Origin: a virus
DNA: 64,000 nucleotides
Direction: 5' to 3' (one strand)
IMG/VR virus record: IMGVR_UViG_3300036846_000489
Span: 11,089 to 75,088 of that record
Shown: positions 39,755 through 54,674 of the stretch, piece by piece
Layout of the letters: every line of letters starts with the position of its first letter
Numbering within the stretch: position 1 is the first letter of the stretch
Translations under genes and position numbers: made by a program
The notes under the pieces: generated by a model
Databases searched by the model: none
The model's input: the letters and a program-made list of their open reading frames with translations, nothing else
What the model was told of the DNA's origin: nothing

Positions 39755-41181
39755 TCAGTCTTTGGAAGCATAGGGCTGCACCTTTTGTCCGAGGAAATCG
39801 AGGTCAAGAACATTCAGGTTGTGGCGTTTGCACCAGACCTGAATACCCTGTTGCGTCCAGCCGACCTCAAGCCGTGACCACGTTTGCGGCGAGACGCCGG
39901 CGGGCATTTCCTTCAGGCACCTGGCACAGTGCATGAACTGGAAGATGCGGTTGGGATGGTCGGTCATATCGGACCCTCCGCATCACACCACACACACCGG
40001 CCGTCTACACCGTAGCGGTGCCTTCCGCTCGGCACACGGCAGGAAGTTTCTGATCTCACCGGCTTCGGTTCGACCAGATCGTCCACCTTGTGCTTGATGT
40101 ATGCCTGATCGTCGGAGAACGTGACCCACGAACGAACGTCGGGGAAGATACGCTGTCCGCATTCAGGGCAGAAGTTCGGCAGCCGGGGATTAACCCAGCA
40201 TAGCAGACAGATGCAGCATTCTGTGCGAATGAGCCGGAAGTGCGCTCTGGTCAGTGCCATTCCATTACTCCCGTCTGCTGCATCAGCCAGTGCTGGACGA
40301 CGACGTGGCGGTAGTGCCACATCGCCGGGTAGAAGGTGGTTGTGGTCATCAGAAACAGCTTCATTGTTTCAACCTCTGGCTGACATTGATCTTGGTGTCC
40401 GGACCAATACCGTCCTTTAGGGTTTCCGCGCAGTGTGCTTCGGTTTCGCCGGAGAAAATCATGACATCGACCGGCAGCCCAACTTCGCGACCGATGATGC
40501 GGATGAAGCTGTCACCCGGCTCTTTGCGGAACTGGTCCAGGTTGGCGAAACTCAGGCCGATCACCAGGATGCTTTTTCCGGTTCCGTCTCTCGCAATTGC
40601 TTTGATCATGAGGATTTCCTGTCCAGCTTGATGTCGTGGGTGCGGTGGCCGTATGATCTACCGGTTCTTATGGCATCGACCAGTTCCTCCATCAGTTCAA
40701 CAAACTCATGAGGGGGTGTGGTCGAGACCACGCGATTTTTCTTTTCTCCCGCCAGTCGATAGATCAGCAGCCAGTCACCGTCATCGCCTATTGCCTTGGC
40801 GAGAAACTGACCTACGGCATCAGCTATGAATTCATCCTCTTTGTCTTCGGTCATTTGGTGTCCTTTTCCTGTTTCCAGCGAAGTGCTGGTGCAGAGAGCC
40901 ACGCCCCACGGGACGCGCTCCCTGCATCAATGCTTCGTCTCCGCAGCGTCTTTTAAGGCGGTGAGTTTGAGGATTAATTTCACTAGCATCGTCAATAGGC
41001 TCGACCGAATTTCTGCGGTGTCCTTGTCGTCTTCCCCATAATGCCCAGCAACCCATATGGCGGTTAGTTCGGCGAGAACTGCGCCCTGTATGGCTGAGGA
41101 CTTGCCAGCCAGGATCGGCTTGATCTGACCGATCAGAGCGATTATTTCCTCTACGTCTTTCTTGGCGAAATCGGTCATCAA
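39755..41181 (-). CDS. Cluster of small early genes (39755-39967, ~39964-40260, 40361-40609, 40606-40854, 40927-41181), two with CxxC motifs
   Basis: Several ATGA-type overlaps; AAGGACACCAAATG start at 40854. Confidence 0.55.
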
Positions 41182-42221
41182 CGCACCTCGTAGTGGGAAC
41201 GGTTGGACTTGAAGCTCTTCCGCTGTTCCTCGGTAGCATTGACCAGTGTGTCCGCGATCCAGATCGACCGACCCGTGGCGTAGTTTCTCGGGTGTCCCAT
41301 GCGGATGTGGAACTGCGGACTTGCGTGGTGCCCGCCCAGACCTTCGCTCCGCTCCCGATGACCGCGTGCCAGAATAGCCGTGACATACGGCTCACTAAGC
41401 ACCCGGTCGTAGTGCGGGATCGGCGGCTTCCGGCTTTTCATCCTGGCACGTTGCAATTTCTCCGGTGGCCGAACTGTCTCCCGATCCACCCCGCGCGTGG
41501 CGAGGATCATCAGGCAACAGATAATCGGGTCACCGATATTGCAGCTTGCCGCCTCGTGGGCCGATTGTCCGTTGTTCTGCAAGGCACGGAATTCATCGTC
41601 GGCGACGAACCGCAGAATAGACGGTGCCACTTGGGAAATATGGTCAACGCCAAGTTCCGGTGGCGGCACCATGAACATGCCACGGTCACCGATTACCAGG
41701 AGTTGCTGGTAACCGAGCGTCAAGGGCTGAAGCTCGCAGACTTCGAAGGTCGTGTCGGAAGGACGATTGACCAGATAGACCGCTATCGCCTTGGTTTCTG
41801 GCAACACCACTGGCTGAGGGCCTGCGCCCTTCCAGATGAGGTTATGATCCCAAGTGTGGTAGCAAATCCACGGGTCGGAAAATGGGAAACCCAAGGCTCC
41901 CATATTCCACATCTTCCCGCCACGCTTCGCGCATTCCGAGATGACCAAGTTCGGCAAGTGACCGAAGTCGATGACCCTGCCGGCTGTCACCGCATCGCGG
42001 CACCGAAGGGAGATCAATTCAACCTCCCTCTGTGTCGAGGCGTATTCACGGCTCTCGGGAAGCAACCGCATGTTCGATGACTGGAAACCGGTGACGCGAA
42101 AATCGAGCACCGCGTCCCGCATCTGCGTGACGGTTGGTCTCCACTCCATGTCCAGCGACATAGTTAGCTCCTGCCCGAAGATCACCTGACCTTCGGGAGT
42201 TCTCATTAGTCTCGGTTCCAT
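41178..42221 (-). CDS. Hypothetical protein with C-terminal H.SP..H.R.GH.R motif
   Basis: Start at AAGGACACCAAATG (42221). Confidence 0.7.
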   Translation of the reverse strand: MEPRLMRTPEGQVIFGQELTMSLDMEWRPTVTQMRDAVLDFRVTGFQSSNMRLLPESREYASTQREVELISLRCRDAVTAGRVIDFGHLPNLVISECAKRGGKMWNMGALGFPFSDPWICYHTWDHNLIWKGAGPQPVVLPETKAIAVYLVNRPSDTTFEVCELQPLTLGYQQLLVIGDRGMFMVPPPELGVDHISQVAPSILRFVADDEFRALQNNGQSAHEAASCNIGDPIICCLMILATRGVDRETVRPPEKLQRARMKSRKPPIPHYDRVLSEPYVTAILARGHRERSEGLGGHHASPQFHIRMGHPRNYATGRSIWIADTLVNATEEQRKSFKSNRSHYEVR

Positions 42222-42291
42222 TTGGTGTCCTTCTCTGTGTCCCCTGGTCGGGGCGAGGACAGCACCGATGCCGGCGCTGCCTTCGTCCAGA

Positions 42292-42909
42292 TCAGCGAAT
42301 ATCAACCTTTTTCGCCGCGCCTTGCTCAAGAGCGGCTTTGAGTATCTGTTGGGCGGCATCGCGTTCTTCGAAGGTTGGCTCCCTTTCCGGCAGAACCTCG
42401 GCAAAACTTCCCATTATGAAACTCTGCGGGTCAGAGGTCTTTTCATCCTTTACCCCGGTGCATTTGCCTTTCGCGTTTCTTACGACTTCGGCTTGTGCCA
42501 CGGCGGTAAGGCGTTCACCGGTATCGTCGTTGCGCCATATGATCTGTGCTATGACGACTTCTTGGCGATCTTCCCGTTGGCTCGGCATGACCTCGGGATA
42601 TTCTGGGTCCGGTTCTCCTGGCTTGCTGCTCGCAATCCAGGCTTCGCCGATGAAGGCGACGGCGAACCCGTTGTCGGCTATACAGATGAGCCGGGCCATT
42701 TCCCGGTGTCCGCGTTTTTCCTTGTCGTCGTAGTTGTTCATTCCGCCGACACCTATCGGGGTAACTCTATGGGCGGCATGAACCACGAATAGCGGCATAA
42801 GGTGTCCTTCTTTGGTGATACACCGCTTGGCATATTCTAGATCAAGCCGAAGTTGTTTGGCATAATCGAACTTTCCCTTGGCGATGTTTGGTCCGGTTTT
42901 TCTCGGCAT
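42292..42909 (-). CDS. Hypothetical protein
   Basis: AAGGACACCAGATG start; EAW..PS..DR.EV motif. Confidence 0.7.
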   Translation of the reverse strand: MPRKTGPNIAKGKFDYAKQLRLDLEYAKRCITKEGHLMPLFVVHAAHRVTPIGVGGMNNYDDKEKRGHREMARLICIADNGFAVAFIGEAWIASSKPGEPDPEYPEVMPSQREDRQEVVIAQIIWRNDDTGERLTAVAQAEVVRNAKGKCTGVKDEKTSDPQSFIMGSFAEVLPEREPTFEERDAAQQILKAALEQGAAKKVDIR

Positions 42910-42982
42910 CTGGTGTCCTTCCTGTTCTCCCCTGGTCGGGGCGGTGACAGCCACGGAATATCCTTGGCTGCCCCCGTCTGGA

Positions 42983-43597
42983 TCAGGGCAAATACCTCTC
43001 AGCGACGTTCTCGCGCTTAATGAACTTCAGTAGGGCTGAATAGAATTCTTCCAGCCGTTGCTCGCCGTCCTGTTGCGACAGCCGTTGTTGCCAATGCTCC
43101 AGGAAATCCCAGGCATTGATCAACGCTCTTTCCCGGTCATAGAACATGAGCGGCCGCCAGCAGTAATCCAGCGACAATTCCGACCACCAGGAACAGGCTG
43201 AAGCCGCCCTGTCCTGGCCGTTCCCGATCCCGCCTTCTCTCGGTGATTTCGATGTTGACCACCACGCGCCGGGGCGGCCCGCCTGAAGGCGGGGGAGGAT
43301 CGTTGTGGAAGGAATTGCCGTCCAGTAAGTAGTCGAATGAGCCACGCTTCGGCTCCTTGTTCTTCAGCATATGCCCAACTCCTTCTTGGTCCGATCAACC
43401 AGATTTTCCCACTCCTTGCAGGCATCTTCCAGCCAGTTGATTGACTTGGCCGATCCCTGAAATTCGTAGGTATCGCGATCAAAGTGAAGACCGTTGAGCA
43501 CCTCTCTTGCCGCCGCTCTCATCGAACAGGCAACATCATACATCAATTGCTTGTTCGCTTTCATAGCGACGGCCTGATCTTCAGTTCTTTTCGGCAT
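42983..43597 (-). CDS. Three small early genes (42983-43147, 43137-43370 with TM helix, 43364-43597)
   Basis: Overlapping starts/stops; motif RBS at 43597. Confidence 0.55.
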
Positions 43598-43702
43598 GGG
43601 TTTGGTGTCCTTCTCTATTCCCCGACCGACTGGTCGAGGCGACAACAGCACCGCGCAAGGCGGGCTGTTCCCGTCAGGATCAGCACGACAGTCTGGCGAC
43701 CG

Positions 43703-44314
43703 TCAGTGGTATCTCCGGTGGTTGCCGTCGGCGGACCAATTTACTTCGTGCCAGTCCGCGACCGGCCCAGGCACGGTCAGAACCGGCACGGCCAATGCCC
43801 CGATGATCCCAGCGGACGCCCTGCCCTCTACACCGGCCAGGACGATCAGCGTGCCACGAGTAAGGAGCGTGGCCTTTTGGTTCGGGAACAGAACCGGCTC
43901 CTTGGTATTATCGAGGCGATCAAGGCTGCTTTCGAATTCGGCAATTCCCTGTTCCCCCAGGCGGGTTGCCAGGGTGACAAGGGCGCCGTGGCTGTCAGCT
44001 TGAAGAATGAAAGACGCCATGGTTGACCACAGTGCTGCCCGGTCTTCCAGGTCGGTATTATTTATCTCTGGGACCGGGTCAGACCACCGAAGCATGTCGC
44101 AGATCATTCCCCGGTTGGGGGAGGCAAATACCACATGCCGCCCATAGCAGGCCGGGAGTGCTAGTTTCCCAGCTTCCTCTGAAGCGATGGCATCGACAAC
44201 CTCCTGCAAGGTCGGAATACAGCGACGCAGTATTCGCTTCGTGCTCGGCTTTTGCGCGCGGCCTTTCACCACATCCTCTAAGGTCATGGTGGCGACGTGT
44301 TCTCCTAGTGTCAT
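43703..44314 (-). CDS. Hypothetical protein
   Basis: AAGGACACCAACCCATG start. Confidence 0.65.
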   Translation of the reverse strand: MTLGEHVATMTLEDVVKGRAQKPSTKRILRRCIPTLQEVVDAIASEEAGKLALPACYGRHVVFASPNRGMICDMLRWSDPVPEINNTDLEDRAALWSTMASFILQADSHGALVTLATRLGEQGIAEFESSLDRLDNTKEPVLFPNQKATLLTRGTLIVLAGVEGRASAGIIGALAVPVLTVPGPVADWHEVNWSADGNHRRYH

Positions 44315-44391
44315 GGGTTGGTGTCCTTCTCCGTCCTCGACTTCTGGTCGAGGCGGCGACAGCGCGGCTTCCCGTGCTGTCTCCGTCCAGA

Positions 44392-45549
44392 TCAGGGTCG
44401 TCTCCTGATGACGTCATAATCGTCGTGAACAACGAAGCCGCGTGAGGCGTCGCCGCGTTCATGCTCCGGTCGCCACCAGCGTTTGCCGCCACAGTCCGAA
44501 CAGACCCAATTATCCGGATCGTCCGGCCCAGCGTCCGGCCACGGCAGCCATTTCGGTGGACCGTGGTTCGGTTCGAAGTTGTGGACGCACCCGGCGATCC
44601 TGGAATAATCGCGGGCTTCCTTGTTGTGGCAGTAGTGACCACGAACTTCGTGCCGGCGACGCGGCACAGCGTCACCCGCCGGGGTGCCGATCAGCCTTAA
44701 GGTCGGCACCGGATCGATCTCTATGGTCACCGTGGTATGTGCCATGTAGGCCCGGAACTTGCCGCTGATGAAGCCAGGGGCATTCGGCAGAGAGTTCCGG
44801 TAGCTGGTCAGCGACGGCCGGTTGAGCATCAGCAGGATCGCGATGATCGTCCGAAAGTCGCCAATCGTGCCACGTGCCATGGACGCCATGCCGCCGTCAG
44901 CGGTCCATTTATGGTAGGATGGATGGGCCGGATTGAGCGGCGTCTGTTCCATGACGTTGAACTCTCGCAGCACGCGCCGTTCGTCGTTGGTCAGGTTGTC
45001 CCAGGTTGATCCCCACATAAGCATGTCGAGGCTCATCCGAGAGCACCCGCACAGACGGGCGAATTCCAACTGATCGTCTATCGGCCATTCGGTTCTTAGT
45101 CGATACTGCATTCCGGTCACCTGCGGGTCAGTGACCGGGTTGGCCACCGTGCCGCCGCAGATGGTATTGATCCGATTATGGTCGATCAGATACCCGACCG
45201 TGTGATCGGCACTGTCAAGTTCGCCATACCAGCCGGTATTTTCATACCGTCCTGGATCAGCGTCGCGTAGCACCTTCCAGTAAATCCACGAAGGCCACTC
45301 TATCCAGGTGACCTCGAAAGGTGGTCTGGCGAAGCCGTGTTCCCGCACCAGAAGTGAAGGAATATCACGCACGACCTGGGCAATACGCTCCGCGGCCCGC
45401 TCGTCAAAGACGAACTTATGGGCGGCACGCATGGAGCGTTGAAGCATGTCCATGGTTTTCGGATGGACGAACCGCTCCTTGGCCGAAAACTTATGAGCCA
45501 AAAAGCGGTCAGCCAGTATTGGCCCCCGCTTGGTAGGTGTTTTGGCCAT
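44392..45549 (-). CDS. Hypothetical protein with RRH.VRGH..W..H.RG C-terminus
   Basis: AAGGACACAACATG start; RPPF..WIE motif. Confidence 0.7.
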   Translation of the reverse strand: MAKTPTKRGPILADRFLAHKFSAKERFVHPKTMDMLQRSMRAAHKFVFDERAAERIAQVVRDIPSLLVREHGFARPPFEVTWIEWPSWIYWKVLRDADPGRYENTGWYGELDSADHTVGYLIDHNRINTICGGTVANPVTDPQVTGMQYRLRTEWPIDDQLEFARLCGCSRMSLDMLMWGSTWDNLTNDERRVLREFNVMEQTPLNPAHPSYHKWTADGGMASMARGTIGDFRTIIAILLMLNRPSLTSYRNSLPNAPGFISGKFRAYMAHTTVTIEIDPVPTLRLIGTPAGDAVPRRRHEVRGHYCHNKEARDYSRIAGCVHNFEPNHGPPKWLPWPDAGPDDPDNWVCSDCGGKRWWRPEHERGDASRGFVVHDDYDVIRRRP

Positions 45550-45624
45550 GTTGTGTCCTTCTGTTCTCCCCGAGCATGTCTGATCGAGGCGGAAACAGCC
45601 ATGCTGCTTCCGTCCGGATCAGGC

Positions 45625-45650
45625 AAAGAAAAGGGGAGCCGAAGCTCCCC
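45625..45650 (-). terminator. Intrinsic terminator inside the early array
   Basis: GGGGAGC-TTCG-GCTCCCC-TTTTCTTT on -. Confidence 0.8.
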
Positions 45651-45681
45651 ACAAAGTCTGGGTCGGATATTTTCTGCCGGT

Positions 45682-46320
45682 CTACGCCGACCGACGCCGC
45701 AACAGGGTCAGGCCGATCAGGCCCATCCCGAGGATCACAAGCGAGGCAGGCTCCGGCACGGCCGTCGCCGAAGCACTGATGTCACCCGCAAAGCTGGCAT
45801 TGAAGGCGCCAATTGTGCTGCCGTCCAAGGCAAGGGTGGGCAGCAGATTGGTGAACGCCAGATTGAACGAGCTTGGGGGCACCAACTCGTTGGCCGGAAT
45901 GACGTTGCTGGCCAACGTGAGGCTCTCCGGGGGGTTGTTGACATTGACTGTCAGACCCGGCCCACCATTTGCCCCAAAGGCGGCATCGGTGAACGTGCCA
46001 GAGAGGAAGTTACCCGTGCATCCGGCAGCACTTGAGATACAGAAGCTTCCCGAGTAATGCTGGATGATGTTGCCCGCTACCGTGATTGCCGCATCGATAG
46101 AATGCGCGGAGAGGGTCATCATGGCGCCAGGAATGGCACCGAGAATACCGCCGCCCAGCAAAGCTAGCTGGTTGGTGTAACTGATATTCGTCACGGTGCC
46201 ATTGTCGGTCGCTACCACGGTATTCGTCGTGGCCTCCTGAGCGAAAGTCGTAAGCAAGGCGGCTTCCGCTACTGTCGGCAAGGCCACGGCGATGGTGGAG
46301 GCAAGCAAAAGTGCCTTCAT
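45682..46320 (-). CDS. PEP-CTERM sorting-domain surface protein
   Basis: Signal peptide MKALLLAST..AEA; C-terminal VPEPASLVILGMGLIGLTLLRRRSA. Confidence 0.92.
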   Translation of the reverse strand: MKALLLASTIAVALPTVAEAALLTTFAQEATTNTVVATDNGTVTNISYTNQLALLGGGILGAIPGAMMTLSAHSIDAAITVAGNIIQHYSGSFCISSAAGCTGNFLSGTFTDAAFGANGGPGLTVNVNNPPESLTLASNVIPANELVPPSSFNLAFTNLLPTLALDGSTIGAFNASFAGDISASATAVPEPASLVILGMGLIGLTLLRRRSA

Positions 46321-46430
46321 CTGGTTTCCTTTCGGGTTGGTGTGAACACTCAGTCTCCCCGGCTTTGCTGGCCGAGGCCGGAACGCCCGCCACAGTTTCC
46401 TGTGGGGACGCTCCGGTCAAGGTCAGATTT

Positions 46431-46640
46431 CTACCGTCTCCGGTGGCTGGCATCTATAGGTTCGATGTCGGTCTCAACCTGACGGGGATCGCGGCCCTGT
46501 TGTATCCGCGATATCCTGGCGGGCAGGATGATATCCCGATTGCAGTCGTCGCAGCACCGGCCATGGTTGATCGGCTCCGCGTTGTTCCCGAACCGGGTGT
46601 ATGGCCGCCCGCAGATCGTGCAGGCTCCGTTCTCATCCAT
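46431..46640 (-). CDS. Zn-finger protein
   Basis: CTICG..GNNAEP..GRCCDDCN. Confidence 0.7.
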   Translation of the reverse strand: MDENGACTICGRPYTRFGNNAEPINHGRCCDDCNRDIILPARISRIQQGRDPRQVETDIEPIDASHRRR

Positions 46641-47136
46641 CCTTGTTCTCCTCTTCCTTGCGCGGCATTCCGGAAAGAAGCTGACCGTAGGTGTGGAGCA
46701 CCTCGGTCACCGGCTTGCCGTCTCGGAAGAACGTGATGGTTCCCGCCGCCTCTGAGGCGCGAGAGTTGCCCCAGGCGTCGAACTCGGCACGATCCATCCA
46801 AATGATGTTCCGACGCAGCCATTCGACGGTGACCACCGGATCGACCGTGTAGTAGCCTCCCGGCACGTCTTCGTCTTCGACCTCTTCGCCCACAACCACA
46901 CCGTTGCCGGCCATTGGCTGGTCGGTGCGGAATGCGCAGAAGAAAAAGTGCATGGTTGGTTTCAGCAAGCCTTCCTCGTCCACGAACATCACATCTCCAG
47001 ACGGGAACCGAAAGGCCGCTTCGATCCAGCCACCGATATAGTCACCGACGGTAGGAAGCTCGCCTTCGGCACTTTGTATGCGATATTCGACCTCACGGAT
47101 TTCCCGCTTCACGGCATCAATGAGAATTGCCTTCAT
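46633..47136 (-). CDS. DUF3846-like protein
   Basis: KAILID..IGGWIE..FVDEEGL..AGNGVVVG. Confidence 0.75.
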   Translation of the reverse strand: MKAILIDAVKREIREVEYRIQSAEGELPTVGDYIGGWIEAAFRFPSGDVMFVDEEGLLKPTMHFFFCAFRTDQPMAGNGVVVGEEVEDEDVPGGYYTVDPVVTVEWLRRNIIWMDRAEFDAWGNSRASEAAGTITFFRDGKPVTEVLHTYGQLLSGMPRKEEENKDG

Positions 47137-47220
47137 GGGTATTTGGTGTCCTTCCATTCAGTTTCCCCAGGCTGGCTGAGGCGAGGACAGCCACCGGCCT
47201 GAGCCGGCGCTGCCTTCGTC

Positions 47221-48357
47221 TTAGTCAGGGTCTATCGGCTCGTCGTGATCGTAGTTCGGATCGGTCAGAACCTCTGGCCGGAACGCGGCCAGCTTCTCCT
47301 TTTCGCATTTCCCGCACATGTATCCGAGAGGAATTCCCCTCGCATCCAGTCCGACCCACGGCCACTCGCCGCTGCCGCACGGGCATTCAGTCAGCATCGC
47401 CATCATGGTTCTCCGTCGTGGCCAACGGCTTTCTGGTCCGCCACGCCATCGACGGTGCGATGGCGTCCGGCGTATTCCCACTGGACCTGATGGAAGCGTT
47501 CGATATTCGCGATGTCACGAATATCCAACTTGAACCCCAGAGCCAAGTAGATTAGTTCCAAATCGCCTTGGTTGAGCCGGTCGAGGTTGGGCAAGGTGGC
47601 ATGAGGGATGCCACAGTGCTCAATGATCCACTCACGGATGACGCGGACCAGTTCGTATTTGTCTGGCCGCATCTTGGGAGGAAGCGACATCACGCTGCCT
47701 CCCGAGGGTCTTCAGTATTTATCGGCATTTGGTGTCCTTTCCAAAGTCCTCGGCGAACTGGCCGAGGCGGCGGTAGCCACGACAAGCGCAGCTACCCCCG
47801 TCCAGGTCAGATCAACTTGATCTCGACAGAAGTGACCGTGTAGGGGCCGTTGCAGCCAAGGCCGGGAGAGCCATACACGGCCTTCCCGTGGGTCAGTTCC
47901 CAGAAGCTTTTCTGCCGAGCCTGAAGGTAGACATCATCAAGCTCACCTTCGCAGATCGACTTTGTCTCCCAGGTCTGGCCCTTGGCAGCGGTGCCACGAA
48001 GGGTGCAGTTGTAGAGGCGGATCATGCCGGCCTCCTTATGAACTCTCGGCCCGGCCTGGACCGAATACCATGGATCAGATCGTCATGTTCTGTAGCGAAC
48101 CGAACCATGGCACGGCGAAGGTCCAGCATCACGTCGCAGATTTTCCGCAGGCGATCCACCTCTTTCTGATCCATCGGAAACTCCGACAACTGCGCCATGG
48201 CATCACAGAGGTTCGATACCATCGCGTTCATCCGGCCCAGGATCAGGTCTTTCTGATCGGTCTCTTTCTGGTATTTCGCCATCAACAAAGCCATGCTGGA
48301 ACGCGCTTCTCGCGCTTCAGCCTTCGCCTGTTGCAGCGGTGTAGGGTTTCGAGGCAT
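47221..48357 (-). CDS. Small early genes (47221-~47406 Zn-finger, 47403-47690, 47807-48025, 48022-48357)
   Basis: CPCGSG..DARGI..C..C; coupled starts; motif RBS at 48357. Confidence 0.6.
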
Positions 48358-48432
48358 TTGGTGTCCTTCCGTTCTCCAGCGCAAACGCTGGTGCAAAGAG
48401 CCACGGGCCATTGCTGACCCGCGCTCCTTGCA

Positions 48433-48903
48433 TCAAGGTTTGTTTGCTTCTCGCGCTATCCGCTCGTCTTCCTTCGTCGCATAATGAGGAAGTTCGCGCA
48501 GAGAAAGGCGGGGCCTTCCAGGCTTTTTTGGCCCAGGTGTTCTTTCCCGTTTCTTTTCCGGTGCTCGCTTTCCCAGCCTATGGGCTTTGGTAGGCGCAAA
48601 AAGTGTGAGTTTGCCGTAGACAAACCGTCCTTCGGTATCGAATTGACGAATGACTTCTGGCCAGTGGTTGACGTATCTCAGCCAGTGTTTTGCCCCTTCT
48701 TCTAGCACATAAGCTCGGTATTTATAGACTATCGCTGCCCGAGCGCCTTCGCGCATTAACGAACGAGCCCAAGGGCAGTCGCACGGATCGTTGGGGCAGG
48801 CGCCCTTGATATCAACAAGAAGAGCCACGACAGGTCTATTCTTCTTCGCGTCCACTATGGGTAGTCCTAGAAAGGCTGGATGGTTTCTCATCATGGATGC
48901 CAT
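48433..48903 (-). CDS. Basic hypothetical protein
   Basis: AAGGACACCAAATG start; DP..C..A..W.RY..FD motif. Confidence 0.65.
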   Translation of the reverse strand: MASMMRNHPAFLGLPIVDAKKNRPVVALLVDIKGACPNDPCDCPWARSLMREGARAAIVYKYRAYVLEEGAKHWLRYVNHWPEVIRQFDTEGRFVYGKLTLFAPTKAHRLGKRAPEKKRERTPGPKKPGRPRLSLRELPHYATKEDERIAREANKP

Positions 48904-48996
48904 TTGGTGTCCTTCTCTGTTTCCTGGTCCGGGTCTGGCCCAGGCGGAAACAGAAACGGCCCCCGAAAGGGCCGCTCTGCTACCGTCACGGTCAGA

Positions 48997-49263
48997 TCAT
49001 CCCCGCCGCGTGATGGTCACGTCGTATCCCTTGTCCACGATTTTCTGGATCAGAATTTCCAGGTCTTCGTGATCGTCGGGGAAAAGCATGTGCAACAGCT
49101 TTTTCACCTTGGCGGGACGCGGCTGGGCGTTGCCGTTCTCGATCTGCGACAGATAGCCATTGGACAATCCGGCACGTTCCGCGAGAGCGGTCTGAGACAA
49201 ACCGCGTTCCTCACGGGCTTGCCTGATCTTTTCGCCCAGGTCGGGGCTGTCGAAATTCACCAT
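48997..49263 (-). CDS. XRE-family HTH regulator
   Basis: LGEKIRQAREERGLSQTALAERAGLSNGYLSQIENG. Confidence 0.9.
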   Translation of the reverse strand: MVNFDSPDLGEKIRQAREERGLSQTALAERAGLSNGYLSQIENGNAQPRPAKVKKLLHMLFPDDHEDLEILIQKIVDKGYDVTITRRG

Positions 49264-49265
49264 GG

Positions 49266-49481
49266 TCAACCTCCTGTCTTCCACCATCGGCCGTGATCGC
49301 CCAGAGTGTATTTCTGGCCGACCCCGACGCCGAGGCCAAAGCCGAACAGAAGATGGCATCTCAGGCACATCATTGCCCACGGCCCCCGACGGGTTGCTCC
49401 ATCAACAAAGTCGGTGTTGAGGGAGCCGCGGCAGATGGCACAGGCAACAGGCTTGCTGCCTTGCCAGTAAAGCTTGGTCAT
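49266..49481 (-). CDS. Zn-finger protein
   Basis: C.IC..FVDG.T..GPWA.MC..C..G.GLG.G.GQKY. Confidence 0.7.
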   Translation of the reverse strand: MTKLYWQGSKPVACAICRGSLNTDFVDGATRRGPWAMMCLRCHLLFGFGLGVGVGQKYTLGDHGRWWKTGG

Positions 49482-49566
49482 TTGGTGTCCTTTCCGTTTC
49501 CCCCGATCCGCTGATCGAGGCGGTGGCAGCACCGCACAGCGGCGGGCTGCCCCCGTCCGGATCAGA

Positions 49567-50121
49567 TCATTCCATCCAGAAACAATTATACCGTTCGCGT
49601 TTCGCCATCCGGCACTTCAGGTTGTTCGCCTCGGCGATCCCTCGCAGATAGGCGAACCACTTCGCACTGGTCTGACCCGTGTGATCGCTGAGTTCCTTTC
49701 TCGAAACCCCCTGCGGCCGGCGAGATTGCTCGACTGCCCAATCGACGAACCCGGCGGGCAGTTTGGAGAGGCTGGGACCGCCCTTGATCTCCGGCCCCCG
49801 GTATTCCCCAGGCTCGACTTCTTCCGGCTTGGGAGAAGCCTCAGCGGCCTTCCTGGCAGCCTTCTTCGGCGCCGGCGCTTTCTTCGCGGTCGGTGCCGCC
49901 GCTTTCTTCTTCTTCGCAGCCTCGATACGCACGACGTTGCTTCCTTCATCGTCAGGAAGCGGACGATCAATCAGGCACCACTTGCCTTCAGCATTCTGTC
50001 CCGGCATGTGGTCGGCACCGAGCAGACGCAGACCGGAGCGCTTGAACTCCTTCTCCATGTCTTCCTTGCTGTCCCATGTCCGAGTTTGTGCCTCGACAAT
50101 GGTCATGCGTGTAGCGGCCAT
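49567..50121 (-). CDS. K/A-rich protein with DUF3489-like winged-helix domain
   Basis: AAKKKKAAAPTAKKAPAPKKAA linker; RPQGVSRKEL..TG. Confidence 0.6.
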   Translation of the reverse strand: MAATRMTIVEAQTRTWDSKEDMEKEFKRSGLRLLGADHMPGQNAEGKWCLIDRPLPDDEGSNVVRIEAAKKKKAAAPTAKKAPAPKKAARKAAEASPKPEEVEPGEYRGPEIKGGPSLSKLPAGFVDWAVEQSRRPQGVSRKELSDHTGQTSAKWFAYLRGIAEANNLKCRMAKRERYNCFWME

Positions 50122-50231
50122 GAATGTGTCCTTCTGTCCGTGGTGGAAATTCCCGGGACTGGCCCAGGCGGAAAAAGCGTGGGGCAGAGGTTTCCCCCTG
50201 CCCCGAGTTGTTTCCGTCACGGTCAGTCAGA

Positions 50232-50651
50232 TCAGGCGCGCTTGCGCACTGCGATCTTGGTCAGCTTGAACACCGGCTTGCCGCCAGAGACGCTGTAGGC
50301 GAGGCCGTTGCTCGTGGCCAACCGTTCTACCCATGGCCGCCACGCCACTTGGTTCTGTCCGGCTCGGCGCGCCAGCATGGCCCGCGTTACCCCTCCCGGA
50401 CTGGACGCCATCTCCAATACCATCTTCGCGAAATCCTTCGGCAGGATGGTATCGTTGACCGGCGGCATCGGCGTTCTGGCTTTTCTCGGCGCTCTGGCTT
50501 TTCTTTCTGCCCGAGGCTTCCGAGCCGACTTCTTCGCTTCCCGGCCCGGTTTCGGGCCTTGACGCCCCCCGGCCACTACCTTGAACTTCTCTGGCACCGC
50601 AGCCATGCGGGCTGAGGCGCTGTTCTTTTTCTTGATTACGGTCTTAGCCAT
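50232..50651 (-). CDS. Basic protein with DUF3489-like domain
   Basis: SSPGGVTRAML..AG..AWRP. Confidence 0.6.
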   Translation of the reverse strand: MAKTVIKKKNSASARMAAVPEKFKVVAGGRQGPKPGREAKKSARKPRAERKARAPRKARTPMPPVNDTILPKDFAKMVLEMASSPGGVTRAMLARRAGQNQVAWRPWVERLATSNGLAYSVSGGKPVFKLTKIAVRKRA

Positions 50652-50762
50652 TGTCTTAACCCTCTTGTTCGAAGACGCACGCCCGCAGTCGGGACGTGCC
50701 CCCGGCATACTGGCCGAGGCCGCAGCACCACCACGGTTTCCCGTGGGGTGCTCCGGTCCGGG

Positions 50763-52110
50763 TCAGGTATCGAAGTCGCGGCGATGCGCCGCTAGGATTT
50801 CCGCGATTTCCTCTGATGGGATCGGCTCGGCCCGATAGAGGATATCGATGTCCGGCACTTTGCTGATGATCATCCGGTAGCCGGGTGGCATTTTCTCCAG
50901 CAACATGAGAATGGTTGCTGCCACGTCGGCATTTTCATCGTTTACCATCCGTTTCTCCTTGCCCTAAAAAGCGAAAGCTGAGACCGTGATTGCCGTCGTT
51001 CTCCCCGACAAAGGATATCGCTGGATGCCCCTCGATCAACAGAAGGTCTTCGTAGAAGCTGTCCCATTCGTCGATCACGGTATCCATCTCTTCCCCTTCT
51101 TTCGGGTAGTTCTCGGCTATGTAGGCGTCGAGCGACATCTGCCGAGCCAATAATACGGCGTTGCCTTCTTCCTGGGCATTCACCCGGATCGCTTGCATGT
51201 AGCCTTCGTCTCCTATCAGGATGACGGTGTAGGGTTGCATTTGGTGTCCTTTCTCCCGAACCATTCTGGCCCAGGGAGAAACGTCGTCCGCAGACGACGC
51301 TTCCCTCACAGGTCAGGCTTCTTGGGGTTCGCCAAACAATTCCTTCCACATCTCGACCGTGGAGAACTGTTCGACCAGCTTCTTCGCCTCGTCCTCTGGC
51401 TGCGGCTCTATGCTCATGGTTTCGTAGCTCTTGACGAAGAGGTAGAACCGGGAGCTTGCGGTGCGATACAGGATCGCATGATCCCAGTGGAGATACTGGC
51501 CGAGGTCGCAGATCGGCTTTCCCTTATCCGTATCGTAGAGAACGCCGTCGATTATTTTCTGCATTTGGTGTCCGTCCTTCTGTCTCCCGTGCCAACCACT
51601 GGCCCAGGCGAGGACGGCCACGGTTCCCCGCGCCGCCTTCGTCTTGGTCAGATAAGTGGTTTCCATCCACCCCATGGGGGAAGCTCTTCGCCCCACCGTT
51701 TCTTCGGCTTCACCCTCTTGCTGCGTGCGGTCACCGCCCGATCATGGGCGGCTCCCAACGCGGCATCCGACATTGGTTTCTCTTTCGCCCGAGACCAGCT
51801 ATCGCTTGGCCCCACACGAAGCCGAACCTCTGGCACGCTTCCATAGGGCAGACCCTTCGCCTTGGATTTCCGGTTGGGATTTCCCTGACGAAGGAACTTC
51901 CTGCCCTTCGGATACGACCAGTTAATCCGAGACTTTTTCTTCACTCGGAATAGGCTCGAATATGACCGACCACTCGGGGTTTGATCCTTCCGGGTTGCAT
52001 CTGATTACGATCTGCTCTCCGGGAGAAAGGTCGTCGAGAAACTCGACCACCCGCTGAATGATGGCGAACCTTGGTTCTTCGTATTCGCGCTTGTTGGCGA
52101 CTTCTTCCAT
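50763..52110 (-). CDS. Small early genes (50763-50948, 50935-51240, 51313-51564, 51648-51773, 51922-52110)
   Basis: Motif RBS starts; KIIDG.LYDTDK..LYRT..FYL in 51313-51564; 50763 and 51922 share PG..EPIPSEE. Confidence 0.6.
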
Positions 52111-52792
52111 GTGTCTGTCCTTCCGTTCACACTCGTGCTCTGTCTTGGGGGCTTGCAACCCTCGGCAACCTTTCGGCTGACGGCGACATTCCGACCGACC
52201 CCCGTAGGGGCCGGGCGGTGAACAGAGGTTAAGGACACACCAAATTTTCGTATGAATACAACCGAGACTGTTTCGCCCTTCCCGCCCGCAAGATCGCCTC
52301 ACGGCTACCCTTACGACTTGTTCTCAGGCTAGGCTGTATCCACACGCCCGTATCCATTCACAATGCTGGCTTACACGCTGACGCCAGCAGACATCCGACA
52401 ACCCTGCTCACGCCCACCGGGCGTTTTTCTAGGTGTCGGTGTATCTACTGTGTCAGCCAGAGCGGGGCGCTCTTGGCAGGCTTACAAGGATCGCGCTCTC
52501 CCGGTATTCCCAACGCGCATTGATCCAGGGGGGTTTATGTTGCTGCCCATTTCGCCTTGCCAGTCTGATACCCTTTGCGACCTCTGTTGAGGTCGGGCCT
52601 TCTGGGTGGCACTATGGCGTGGCCGTGGTCCGCTCCTTGACACACTGTCGGCCAGCGTGTCACCTCGGACACCGTCCACTTGCACCTCGGAAGTTCTTTC
52701 CTCGCACGCTTGCAGCGCCCCATCTTCACCTGTCAAAGAACCCGCCGGGGTCGAAGGCGGGGCGGCCCGCCGCCCCTTTTCCTCCCGGCCAT
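52111..52792 (-). ncRNA. Long structured 5' leader / candidate large ncRNA
   Basis: No credible ORF between the strong promoter and first gene; many short hairpins, several with GNRA loops; boxA-like GTTCTTTGACA at 52731-52741. Confidence 0.6.
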
Positions 52793-52798
52793 TTTAAG

Positions 52799-52827
52799 AT
52801 CATAGCAAATTTTACCAGGTTTGTCAA
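52799..52827 (-). promoter_or_regulatory. Strong sigma70 early promoter
   Basis: TTGACA-17 bp-TATGAT. Confidence 0.88.
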
Positions 52828-54567: not shown

Positions 54568-54674
54568 TACGAAGTCTCCTGGTCTACGAGGTTTTGCCGT
54601 TTCGCCGTTTCCGGCTCATCGGGCGGGACACGCATCCCGCGACGGCGGGCGGGGATTTCTCCCCGCCCTGGTAG

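Follow-up and report, generated by a model that had tools for sequence, protein, structure and literature searches.

An uncultured soil phage of 75 kb, analysed over a window of 64,000 nucleotides, carries an RNA element in sixteen gaps between its small early genes. The element is built from a covarying core hairpin (HP1) and a 3' segment, GCC-US-GRYCAG, that has two mutually exclusive pairings. In genome comparisons the element marks the border of a cassette, and genes have been gained, lost and reshuffled at its edges. We tentatively read it as a putative intercistronic processing and end-protection module of the RNase III type, a plausible reading that falls somewhat short of being probable.

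The first-pass annotation had claimed 16 elements, and this number stands: 14 type-I copies and two variant hairpins (V1 and V2) lie between 40.87 and 51.65 kb, all on the minus (mRNA) strand, which is the coding strand for all genes from 40.6 to 52.1 kb. Each element begins on or close to the stop codon of the preceding gene and extends toward a standardised ribosome-binding site (RBS; AAGGACACCAAAUG). A near-consensus sigma-70 promoter is probably the start of the early transcript bearing all elements, and the sequence suggests that this is one single transcript. The features are as follows, HP2 being the short downstream hairpin of one of the two pairings.

52799..52827 (-): near-consensus sigma-70 promoter, TTGACA-17-TATGAT with TG, 11/12 matches
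51586..51651 (-): E1, element 51599-51651 with HP2 to 51586, 63.4 bits; UGA 51648-51650 (-) is the upstream ORF's stop, and the following ATG is at 51564
51255..51316 (-): E2, element 51266-51316 with HP2, stop 51313-51315 in the outer stem, 45.5 bits; 5' internal loop longer by one nucleotide
50700..50766 (-): E3, element 50710-50766 with HP2, stop 50763-50765 in the outer stem
50152..50226 (-): E4, element 50159-50226 with HP2, stop 8 nt upstream; the longest copy, with a terminator-like apical hairpin
49501..49565 (-): E5, element 49511-49565 with HP2, stop 1 nt upstream, 67.1 bits; outer stem without mismatch (CUGAUC/GAUCAG)
48923..48995 (-): E6, element 48935-48995 with HP2; a variant joint (48931) lies at its edge
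48376..48435 (-): V2, variant hairpin (UGA-UGCA…UGCA) with a second hairpin, CCAGC…GCUGG, 3' of it, stop 48433-48435; weak model match (24.5 bits)
47748..47810 (-): E7, element 47758-47810 with HP2, stop 47807-47809 in the outer stem
47165..47228 (-): E8, element 47172-47228 with HP2, UAA stop 47221-47223 within the element
46357..46426 (-): E9, element 46368-46426 with HP2
45568..45622 (-): E10, short element 45580-45622 with HP2
44335..44395 (-): E11, element 44344-44395 with HP2, stop 44392-44394 in the outer stem
43620..43683 (-): E12, element 43630-43683 with HP2
42929..42986 (-): E13, element 42932-42986 with a minimal 4-bp HP2 (CCCC/GGGG), stop 42983-42985 in the outer stem
42241..42295 (-): E14, element 42244-42295 with a minimal HP2, stop 42292-42294 in the outer stem
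40875..40929 (-): V1, variant hairpin followed by a CCAGC…GCUGG hairpin, stop 40927-40929; weak model match
40852..51573 (-): standardised RBS (A)AGGACACCAAAUG, ~19-22 nt 3' of HP2 in most gaps; 8 exact copies, all eight on the minus strand of the element region

The 14 type-I copies share the consensus CUGAYC-NN-GAC…GCC-US-GRYCAG. Its 5' part, CTGAYCNNGAC, has 13 matches against 1.3 expected, and its 3' part, GCCYSGRYCAG, has 14 against 1.25; none of 100 shuffles reached either count. Because no family in Rfam 15, RAGATH models included, matches any copy at E values up to 10, the elements form an uncatalogued sequence family. All nine stop codon positions named in the first-pass annotation are ends of minus-strand ORFs. 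In the remaining seven gaps the stop lies 1-62 nt 5' of the element or, in E8, just within it. Half of the 14 type-I copies of the studied phage (G0), seven in all, have the stop within the outer helix, as do most copies of three other phages (G1, G2 and G4). The view that the elements are not terminators holds; the absence of U-tails on which it was based is correct in general, but a partial U-tail follows the inner hairpin of E4. E10 is located 3' of a PEP-CTERM gene that ends in an intrinsic terminator of its own (45650->45633) ahead of the element, and in a sister phage a similar short element likewise follows a PEP-CTERM homologue and a terminator.

Covariation was analysed in an alignment of 31 copies from five phages and in a 20-sequence version. 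Among the 31 copies, 15 of 21 pairs vary on both sides and 84% of cells are paired; none of 500 shuffles matched the observed values, and slid controls gave 31-45% paired. The covariation that had been put forward for checking is thus strong, and the compensatory changes described earlier were recovered: at pair 5-65, 20 copies have C-G and 10 have U-A, and at pair 13-58, 22 have G-C and four have C-G. In E8 the outer stem reads CUGACU/AGCCAG, with pair 6-64 switched to U-A. In one G4 copy the stop is UAA, which turns the outer pair 3-67 from G-C into A-U, and the 3' arm compensates (CUAACCC/GGGUUAG). A conserved A.C mismatch does exist as claimed, but there are two fixed ones rather than one, at 4.66 (22/31) and 11.60 (31/31). 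Every copy has A11 and C60, and nearly all (26/31) have U62. The copies are either paralogues or derive from a small number of related phages, so descent or gene conversion could account for part of a three-way correlation at positions 5, 6, 64 and 65.

The element had been described as a single long hairpin. This long form is one of its two folds, with GCC-US-GRYCAG pairing back to the stop-bearing CUGAYC in an irregular helix of ~25 bp, but the description is incomplete: the same 3' outer arm also pairs with a downstream G-rich segment, giving HP2 stacked beside HP1 in a tandem form. HP2 is present in 29 of 31 copies and covaries. Its position 63 flips between C-G (19 copies) and G-C (12), position 62 is U-A in 15, U.G in 11 and C-G in five, and positions 64 and 65 flip too. 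Of 22 copies, 19 are predicted to be more stable in the tandem form, with a mean advantage of 2.9 kcal/mol, and three, E14 among them, in the long form. When folded to minimum energy, nearly all gaps leave the RBS unpaired, with the hairpins occupying the rest of the gap; the spacer 3' of HP2 is short (~19-22 nt) and purine-rich.

Two further claims of the first-pass annotation, sense-strand G.U pairs and GNRA or UUCG loops, were confirmed. G.U pairs outnumber A.C pairs by 47 to 5 when the two fixed A.C columns are excluded (p = 1e-9), and 11 of 28 apical loops are GNRA (8) or UNCG (3); on the antisense strand none of the 28 would be. The model scores are 45-67 bits for the sense and 30-47 bits for the antisense strand. 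Covariation, the G.U excess and the GNRA and UNCG loops together identify the element as a sense-strand RNA structure.

The suggestion that the elements are recombination points between exchangeable cassettes is supported by comparative data, with indels and gene-order swaps at the element edges. In near-identical variants from soil, a single gene is missing together with a single element, and the joints fall at element or RBS edges. Joints 48374->48931 and 48328->48901 remove gene 48433-48903 with V2, joint 51254->51624 removes gene 51313-51564 with E2, and similarity to soil variants restarts exactly at 50766, the edge of E3. In a 70%-identical phage the order of the genes between the elements is permuted, and between G0 and G1 the PEP-CTERM gene and the gene for a 385-aa protein are swapped. 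With its 60-90 nt repeated in every gap, the element provides homology for the gain, loss and shuffling of a gene together with its element, and the breakpoints are scattered within this repeat, as expected of ordinary homologous recombination.

Hammerhead or twister ribozymes fill equivalent gaps in the four other element-bearing phages. G1 has a Twister-P5 scoring over the Rfam threshold, G4 has two type II hammerheads whose stem II is UGAC(stop)/GUCA, and among the elements of G2 lie three twister-P1, one twister-P5 and one hammerhead. In a gap-by-gap check of G2 and G4, no gap held both a ribozyme and an element. Ribozyme-like matches were found near the elements of the studied phage. Clustered hammerheads around single phage genes are thought to cut long transcripts (PMC3088659), and the ribozymes in equivalent gaps give strong circumstantial support to the element as a candidate processing site. 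The shared slot is an association and does not establish a shared function; ribozyme association has turned up several RNAs that failed to cleave when tested (PMC6765202).

If the element is a processing module, the long form would be cut near its internal loop, like the early sites of phage T7, by an endonuclease specific for double strands, most likely the RNase III of the host. The cut would split adjacent cistrons, HP1 would then cap the 3' end of the upstream message, and HP2 would refold as the 5'-terminal hairpin of the downstream message, leaving the standardised RBS open. Since a ribosome terminating at the embedded UGA would have to melt the outer helix, translation of the upstream gene would bias the fold. 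RNase III requires ~two helical turns, and loops or mismatches in its substrates lead to single-strand cuts with stabilising 3' ends (PMC3867540). A search of the studied phage found no RNase III gene. Against processing, the long form that would serve as substrate is, in most copies, the less stable of the two folds, and against RNase III, the base of the element is conserved (CUGA, GAC, GCCU, CAG, with A11 and C60 invariant). We know of no sequence requirement of E. coli RNase III as specific as this.

The RNase III processing signals of the T7 early mRNA (R0.3-R1.3) have a similar layout: irregular hairpins related in sequence, each ~two helical turns long and with an internal loop, occupy one intercistronic gap after another in an early operon that host-type promoters drive. 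A single cut there leaves a stabilising 3' hairpin (PMC3867540). In contrast to the five T7 signals, there are 16 copies of this putative processing site here, with a stop codon in the helix, a competing downstream hairpin and a standardised RBS. The promoter-early stem-loop (PeSL) cassettes of T4-type phages are likewise repeated intergenic modules of ~100 bp, spanning the interval between the stop of one gene and the SD and ATG of the next. They lie beside ORFans in a hyperplastic early region, and it is at these modules that indels and replacements among close relatives have their breakpoints (PMC2839356, PMC4122927). PeSLs carry a strong sigma-70 promoter and a functional terminator, whereas the element has neither promoter-like hexamers nor a U-tract, and the ~20 nt between HP2 and ATG are too few for a promoter. 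Start-associated sequences (SAS/ESAS) of cluster K mycobacteriophages also join a conserved motif, placed at the translation start of a subset of non-structural genes, to imperfect inverted repeats around a variable spacer just 5' of it, in one orientation and with unknown function (PMC3203893, PMC12699233). The element differs from them in sequence, in its longer, covarying stems, in its tie to the upstream stop codon and a second hairpin, and in its unrelated hosts and phages. The RAGATH RNAs (2015), as described in PMC6765202 and PMC11061315, are likewise conserved structured RNAs beside hammerhead or twister ribozymes, largely in phage contexts, and by these accounts most failed to self-cleave when tested. 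The element matches no Rfam RAGATH model, and its two-state fold is tied to the stop codon. Clustered prophage hammerheads flanking single genes have the same layout and the same presumed role, cutting a long phage transcript into gene-length messages (PMC3088659). The element shares with the G4 type II hammerheads the closing helix of a UGAC stop and GUCA, but has neither the hammerhead core (CUGAUGA…GAAA) nor another recognised catalytic core.

It is unlikely that the element is a passive, uncut insulator, two stable hairpins that fold up the untranslated gap, keep the RBS clear of pairings, protect against 3' exonucleases, leave Rho nowhere to load and bring the stop codon spatially close to the following RBS for re-initiation. 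The open RBS, the gap-filling hairpins and the short purine-rich spacer fit this. Ribosome footprint sizes are established, and by this geometry HP1, which starts 7 nt past the UGA, would begin at about the terminating ribosome's edge. An insulator leaves unexplained the base conservation across phages without other common DNA (G0 and G2), the covariation of two exclusive helices, and why sister phages have catalytic ribozymes rather than plain hairpins in equivalent gaps. A new class of self-cleaving ribozyme, its active site perhaps formed by the forward pairing as a pseudoknot, is quite improbable. The same association, conserved structured RNA in gaps beside hammerhead or twister, led to twister-sister, pistol and hatchet (PMC6765202), A11, C60 and U62 are (nearly) invariant, and a pseudoknot is topologically possible in many copies. 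However, very few unpaired nucleotides are conserved, N8 and N9 of the 5' loop vary freely, regular helix makes up most of the fold, none of the Rfam ribozyme models matches, and in CCCC-GAYCAG-GGGG copies a pseudoknot linker of 0 nt makes the helices exclusive.

Still less probable is an RNA operator, at which a phage or host RNA-binding protein or nuclease, such as a Cas6-like or RegB-like hairpin-specific factor, would read the conserved hairpin base and shut off or process all early cassettes jointly. Base and mid-stem are conserved across the five phages (CUGA, GAC, RCAGC/GCUGY, GCCU, CAG), and since most early genes are ORFans without a family match, such a factor could be early-encoded; no candidate was found, and by tblastn the early proteins common to G0, G1 and G2 comprise only a DUF3846 protein. 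An attC-like DNA site, a single-stranded hairpin that a recombinase would cut and rejoin to mobilise cassettes, is highly improbable. Its outer stem, unpaired spacer, inner stem and variable top, 3' of each promoterless cassette, would match, and the cassette indels are real, but the genome has no tyrosine recombinase, GTTRRRY-type boxes are absent, the loops and the 47:5 G.U bias indicate RNA, and the scattered breakpoints resemble ordinary homologous recombination. A translation-sensing switch is rather unlikely, though it ranks above the ribozyme and the operator. Termination at the embedded UGA would melt the outer helix and release the 3' arm to HP2, the long hairpin would form without upstream translation, and each state would have its own nuclease sensitivity or re-initiation efficiency. 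The stop inside the outer helix, the compensated UAA variant and an energy gap of only a few kcal/mol speak for it; against it, the stop is upstream or displaced within the element in the other seven type-I gaps, and because the RBS is open in both states no output is visible in the sequence. If a switch were nevertheless true, the fate of each cassette would be coupled to the translation of its upstream neighbour. With processing as the preferred reading, the elements are most likely the sites where the long early message would be cut and its ends protected.

A pattern search combined with a covariance model identified 14 minus-strand copies of the type I element, CUGAYC-NN-GAC…GCC-US-GRYCAG, within 42244-51651 of the window (E1 to E14, numbered downwards from 51.65 kb). 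Two variant hairpins, V1 and V2, were found as well, which bears out the sixteen hairpins that the first-pass annotation had counted in this region. The conserved ends of the element occur 13 and 14 times in the window, compared with 1.3 expected by chance. Nine UGA triplets within the hairpins had been listed as stop codons, and all nine indeed end minus-strand ORFs: in seven type I copies and in both variants the stop codon is the motif's own UGA, whereas E8 has its stop a few bases into the element and the remaining type I copies have theirs 1-62 nt upstream. A partial extra 5' arm (UGAUC-UGAYC) precedes several elements and creates tandem UGA codons; E4 carries three consecutive UGAs.

Partial extra 5' arms in the window
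49560-49569, minus strand, partial arm
48990-48999, minus strand, partial arm
47805-47814, minus strand, partial arm
50221-50235, minus strand, partial arm

V1 and V2 have the form UGA-UGCA…UGCA-CCAGC…GCUGG. The variant hairpin and the CCAGC…GCUGG hairpin that follows it make up a second family, which is common to this phage and two others (G1 and G4, the latter being locus L262) and is possibly also present in a more distant phage locus, L044.

Members of the variant hairpin family
40875-40929 of the window (approximate ends), V1
48376-48435 of the window (approximate ends), V2
45318-45397 of G1, variant hairpin
12748-12824 of L262, variant hairpin
15027-15112 of L262, variant hairpin
11503-11603 of L044, possible variant hairpin

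The element had been described as a single long hairpin. That hairpin does covary, but folding from the stop codon to the ATG usually gave two adjacent hairpins instead. The first of these, HP1, is the inner portion of the hairpin originally drawn, whereas in the second, HP2, the former 3' outer arm, CCUSGR(Y), serves as the 5' arm and pairs with a G-rich run further downstream. The 3' segment is thus shared by two mutually exclusive helices, a long form in which GRYCAG pairs back to CUGAYC and a tandem form in which it pairs forward, and both pairings are supported. In the long form, a 6-bp stem and a 2x2 loop are followed by another 14-20 bp. Among 31 sense-strand copies from five phages, 84% of the cells in the long-hairpin model are paired and 15 of the 21 pairs show changes on both sides, although part of this correlation may reflect descent or gene conversion, because the copies are all paralogues or come from a few related phages. 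None of 500 shuffles reached the observed values, and slid controls paired in just 31-45% of cells. Outer pair 5-65 is C-G in 20 copies and U-A in 10, with no mismatch, and pair 6-64 is C-G in 26, U-A in two and U.G in two; in a G4 copy with a UAA stop, pair 3-67 has switched from G-C to A-U.

HP2 is present in 29 of the 31 copies. In pair tables that rest on constrained minimum-energy folding and not on a separate alignment, its position 63 undergoes full flips (19 C-G, 12 G-C), position 62 is U-A, U.G or C-G (15, 11 and 5 copies), position 64 is G-C or A-U (17 and 3) and position 65 likewise (12 and 5). In one G1 copy the outer pair 6-64 is broken and the HP2 pair at the same base is kept. 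Constrained folding placed the tandem form below the long form by a mean of 2.9 kcal/mol, and the tandem form was the more stable fold in 19 of 22 copies, the long form in three. Residues A11, C60 and C61 are invariant, with A11.C60 mismatched in 31 of 31 copies; the conservation of C60 and C61 is explained in part by their pairing with the GG of HP2 in the tandem form. A pseudoknot combining the outer stem with a 4-bp forward helix was rejected, being impossible in copies of the type CCCC-GAYCAG-GGGG, where the linker is 0 nt. A standardised RBS, AAGGACACCAAAUG, follows HP2 at a fixed distance of ~19-22 nt in most gaps, and only ~7-57 nt separate HP2 from the ATG. The start motif in this phage is AAGGACACCAAATG.

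The element is an RNA feature of the sense strand. An antisense-strand RNA was considered and dropped: the two fixed A.C columns would be G.U there, but the stems outside these columns contain 47 G.U against 5 A.C cells (binomial p = 1e-9), and the apical loops of HP1 include GNRA in 8 of 28 and UNCG in 3 of 28, of which the opposite strand would give none. Moreover, the sense fold is stabler than the antisense fold in 19 of 28 copies (p = 0.02), and model scores are 45-67 bits for sense and 30-47 bits for antisense.

The source is a complete 75,088-bp IMG/VR virus record with direct terminal repeats, of which the window covers bases 11089-75088. Soil metagenomes contain DNA near-identical to the window; none was found among GenBank phages, and the GenBank protein relatives are cyanophages only, at 38% identity. 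Every gene in 40.6-52.1 kb is carried by the minus strand, and the only near-consensus sigma-70 promoter in 38.5-56 kb lies at 52827->52799 on that strand. All 16 elements are located between minus-strand ORFs downstream of it. The shared strand and the single near-consensus promoter suggest that the region is most simply one early transcription unit, with a predicted transcript from ~52.8 kb down to ~40.6 kb. It encodes ~26 small early proteins, the majority without a Pfam or PHROG family; those with a family are an HTH protein, a DUF3846 protein and a PEP-CTERM protein. A 385-residue early protein (44392-45549, minus strand) contains conserved Cys/His motifs; a search at E up to 0.001 gave 107 homologues, of which many are encoded by contigs of 65-90 kb, and a homologue in one GenBank cyanophage record is labelled 'anti-CRISPR protein', by annotation only. 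Gene starts were picked by RBS rules. Downstream of E8 (47135-47157, minus strand) the standard RBS precedes the second in-frame ATG (~47137) and not the first (47157), which places the probable start of the DUF3846 gene seven codons downstream of that of the longest ORF. The standard RBS downstream of E7 serves only a 12-codon mini-ORF (47690-47728, minus strand) whose stop UGA shares bases with the start ATG of the gene that follows (GUGAUG), an arrangement that looks like a leader peptide with translational coupling.

The covariance model detected the element in four other IMG/VR phages.

Other phages with the element
G1, 75,005 bp, collinear with this phage and ~70% identical in conserved genes: nine copies at E up to 0.001
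G4, 73,959 bp, with ~10 kb of DNA similarity to this phage: at least 8 copies
G2 (locus L032), 77,127 bp, without DNA similarity to this phage: 3 copies
G5, a 16.8-kb fragment: 1 copy

Model scans gave no further element in the rest of this genome outside the early region and none in 27 further IMG/VR loci with a homologue of the 385-residue protein. A pattern scan of metagenome contigs returned chance matches only, none of which passed the model. Matches in bacterial and archaeal genomes were single copies, already selected by the search pattern, and scored 28-36 bits, compared with 45-67 bits for true copies; with such low scores and no arrays, there is no evidence for the element in cellular genomes. 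No family in Rfam 15 fits the element, generic hairpins being the only matches (E up to 1 for 38-56 kb, E up to 10 for 49.45-51.7 kb), and the RAGATH models of Rfam 15 did not match it.

In sister phages the element shares its slots with self-cleaving ribozymes. A Twister-P5 in G1 occupies a gap running from stop codon to standard RBS (40.9 bits, Rfam threshold 37.6). The three elements of G2 belong to one operon, where they are interspersed with three twister-P1, one twister-P5 and one type III hammerhead; another gap of this phage, at 44732-44844, holds a degenerate twister-like sequence. G4 has type II hammerheads with all core nucleotides (GAAAC, GUC, CUGAUGA) in two gaps. In their stem II the stop-containing UGAC pairs with a GUCA close to the 3' end, and the element is closed by the same helix. 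Rfam matched two of three hammerhead gaps in L262, at 25 and 27.6 bits (threshold 37), and the third was assigned from sequence similarity alone. The stop codon lies within stem II, and the one gap checked by hand allows a pseudoknot of the 3' tail with the stem I loop. A gap-by-gap check of G2 and G4 found no gap with both a ribozyme and an element.

Ribozyme matches in sister phages
L262, 7081-7174, 7340-7417 and 7735-7807: type II hammerhead-like RNAs in three successive gaps
L032, 2472-2542, 2954-3007, 5350-5402, 6103-6162 and 8410-8469: ribozyme matches

Two ribozyme-like sites were found in the window. A type III hammerhead match to the full model (54594-54648, minus strand; 41.5 bits, threshold 48.5, E = 7e-7) occupies a gap that separates two minus-strand ORFs, on the upstream side of the early promoter; its core is CCGAUGAG compared with the consensus CUGAUGAG, and the hammerhead may therefore be weak or inactive. 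A weak twister-P1-like match (52132-52195, minus strand; 32 bits, threshold 67.2) is placed at the 3' end of a ~680-nt leader, directly before the first early gene (ATG 52110), and would, if active, sever the leader from the operon. Where hammerheads cluster around single phage genes, they have been suggested to divide long transcripts into messages of gene length (PMC3088659). It was through proximity to such ribozymes that twister-sister, pistol and hatchet were discovered, whereas other RNAs found in this way did not cleave, and the role of bacterial and phage self-cleaving ribozymes and their accompanying RNAs is largely open (PMC6765202). Most RAGATH RNAs still have no assigned function (PMC11061315); the element resembles them as a conserved structured RNA in gaps near hammerhead and twister ribozymes.

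The elements also act as indel borders, as judged from contigs of three soil studies compared with window 38.5-56 kb. Variants lacking the gene at 48433-48903 together with V2 have joints 48374->48931 and 48328->48901, at the HP2 end or the conserved RBS, and a variant lacking the gene at 51313-51564 and E2 has the joint 51254->51624; the earlier proposal that the elements are recombination points between exchangeable gene cassettes is thereby supported. Several short-sided joints between distant elements were not counted and are probably other cassette orders or the repeats themselves. In a further variant, a diverged version replaces the gene at 50763-50948, and the sequences become similar again precisely from the 5' end of E3. 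Relative to G1, the order of the PEP-CTERM and 385-residue protein genes is reversed in this phage, and the HTH, DUF3846 and 69-residue protein genes are permuted as well. An intrinsic terminator, a UUCG-capped GC hairpin with a U-tract (45633-45650, minus strand), directly follows the PEP-CTERM gene and precedes E10. The trio of PEP-CTERM gene, terminator and short element recurs at a different operon position in G1, suggesting that the element travels with its upstream gene.

Several known systems share features with the element. Like PeSLs, the elements flank ORFans and mark indel borders between close relatives; unlike PeSLs, which have a sigma-70 early promoter inside each copy and a stem-loop that terminates transcription, they contain none of the ten promoter-like sites in 38.5-56 kb, and 15 of 16 lack a following U-tract. 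N4-type DNA-hairpin promoters and PeSL-type promoters were rejected because the elements have no promoter features. Among the elements, a terminator scan flagged nothing but E4's apical hairpin, its other hit being the separate 45650->45633 site, in agreement with the initial view that the elements are not terminators. The SAS/ESAS of cluster K mycobacteriophages combine a 13-bp consensus, GGGATAGGAGCCC, at the start with imperfect inverted repeats of 17 bp upstream. The resemblance is limited to layout: start motif and repeats differ in sequence and the repeats also in length (PMC3203893). Stop-codon readthrough or recoding was discarded: the spacing of UGA-C, 7 nt and hairpin fits, but E7, the one case read, has an in-frame stop within five codons, and the stems covary without a codon pattern. 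An RNase P substrate mimic (RCCA after a helix) fails in the nine copies with U at position 66.

Enzymes of the RNase III type cut helices of about two turns with loops or mismatches (PMC3867540). Our preferred reading, by analogy and held tentatively, is that the long form, with its ~two helical turns, loops and mismatches, would be such a substrate. After a single 3'-side cut near the loop, the upstream message would keep HP1, and the downstream fragment would form HP2 at its newly made 5' end. Cuts by hammerheads or twisters in the sister phages would give comparable ends, namely an upstream 3' hairpin and a structured 5' end followed by an open RBS. As in T7-type RNase III signals, all 16 elements are intercistronic in what would be an early polycistronic transcript; no RNase III gene was found in the phage. 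The element might instead be a passive insulator and stabiliser, which we consider unlikely. Rather improbable is an undescribed catalytic or translation-gated cleavage device, either a new self-cleaving ribozyme class with the forward pairing as a pseudoknot, or a switch whose fold is toggled by a ribosome terminating at the embedded stop codon, which would thereby determine whether the gap is cut; if true, these phages would possess natural standardised, swappable 'gene-punctuation' parts.

A switch sensing termination is improbable as well; the stop codon is built into the long form in only part of the copies. For a new ribozyme the shared slots speak in favour, and we rate it as very improbable: none of the known self-cleaving classes (hammerhead, twister, twister-sister, pistol, hatchet, HDV-like, hairpin) gave an Rfam match on any element, and conserved unpaired nucleotides are few (A11, C60, U62). 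An operator for an RNA-binding factor is marginally more doubtful still. Integron attC sites have an IntI-type tyrosine recombinase as partner and R''/R' core boxes (RYYYAAC / GTTRRRY), whereas the outer arms of the element are CUGAYC/GRYCAG, not GTTRRRY. A DNA recombination site proper is highly improbable. Tyrosine recombinase PF00589 is absent from the complete 75-kb genome, so cassettes are probably exchanged by ordinary homologous recombination, with the 60-90 nt that recur in the gaps as the shared sequence. Homologous recombination between repeats has also been proposed for PeSLs (PMC2839356).

One uncatalogued RNA family thus fills 16 successive gaps of an early operon and alternates with hammerheads and twisters in sister phages. 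The variants in natural populations show how such repeats let ORFan genes plug in and out as ready-to-express cassettes, and the simple, testable two-state fold that includes the stop codon offers a direct handle on what the 'punctuation' of phage polycistronic messages achieves.
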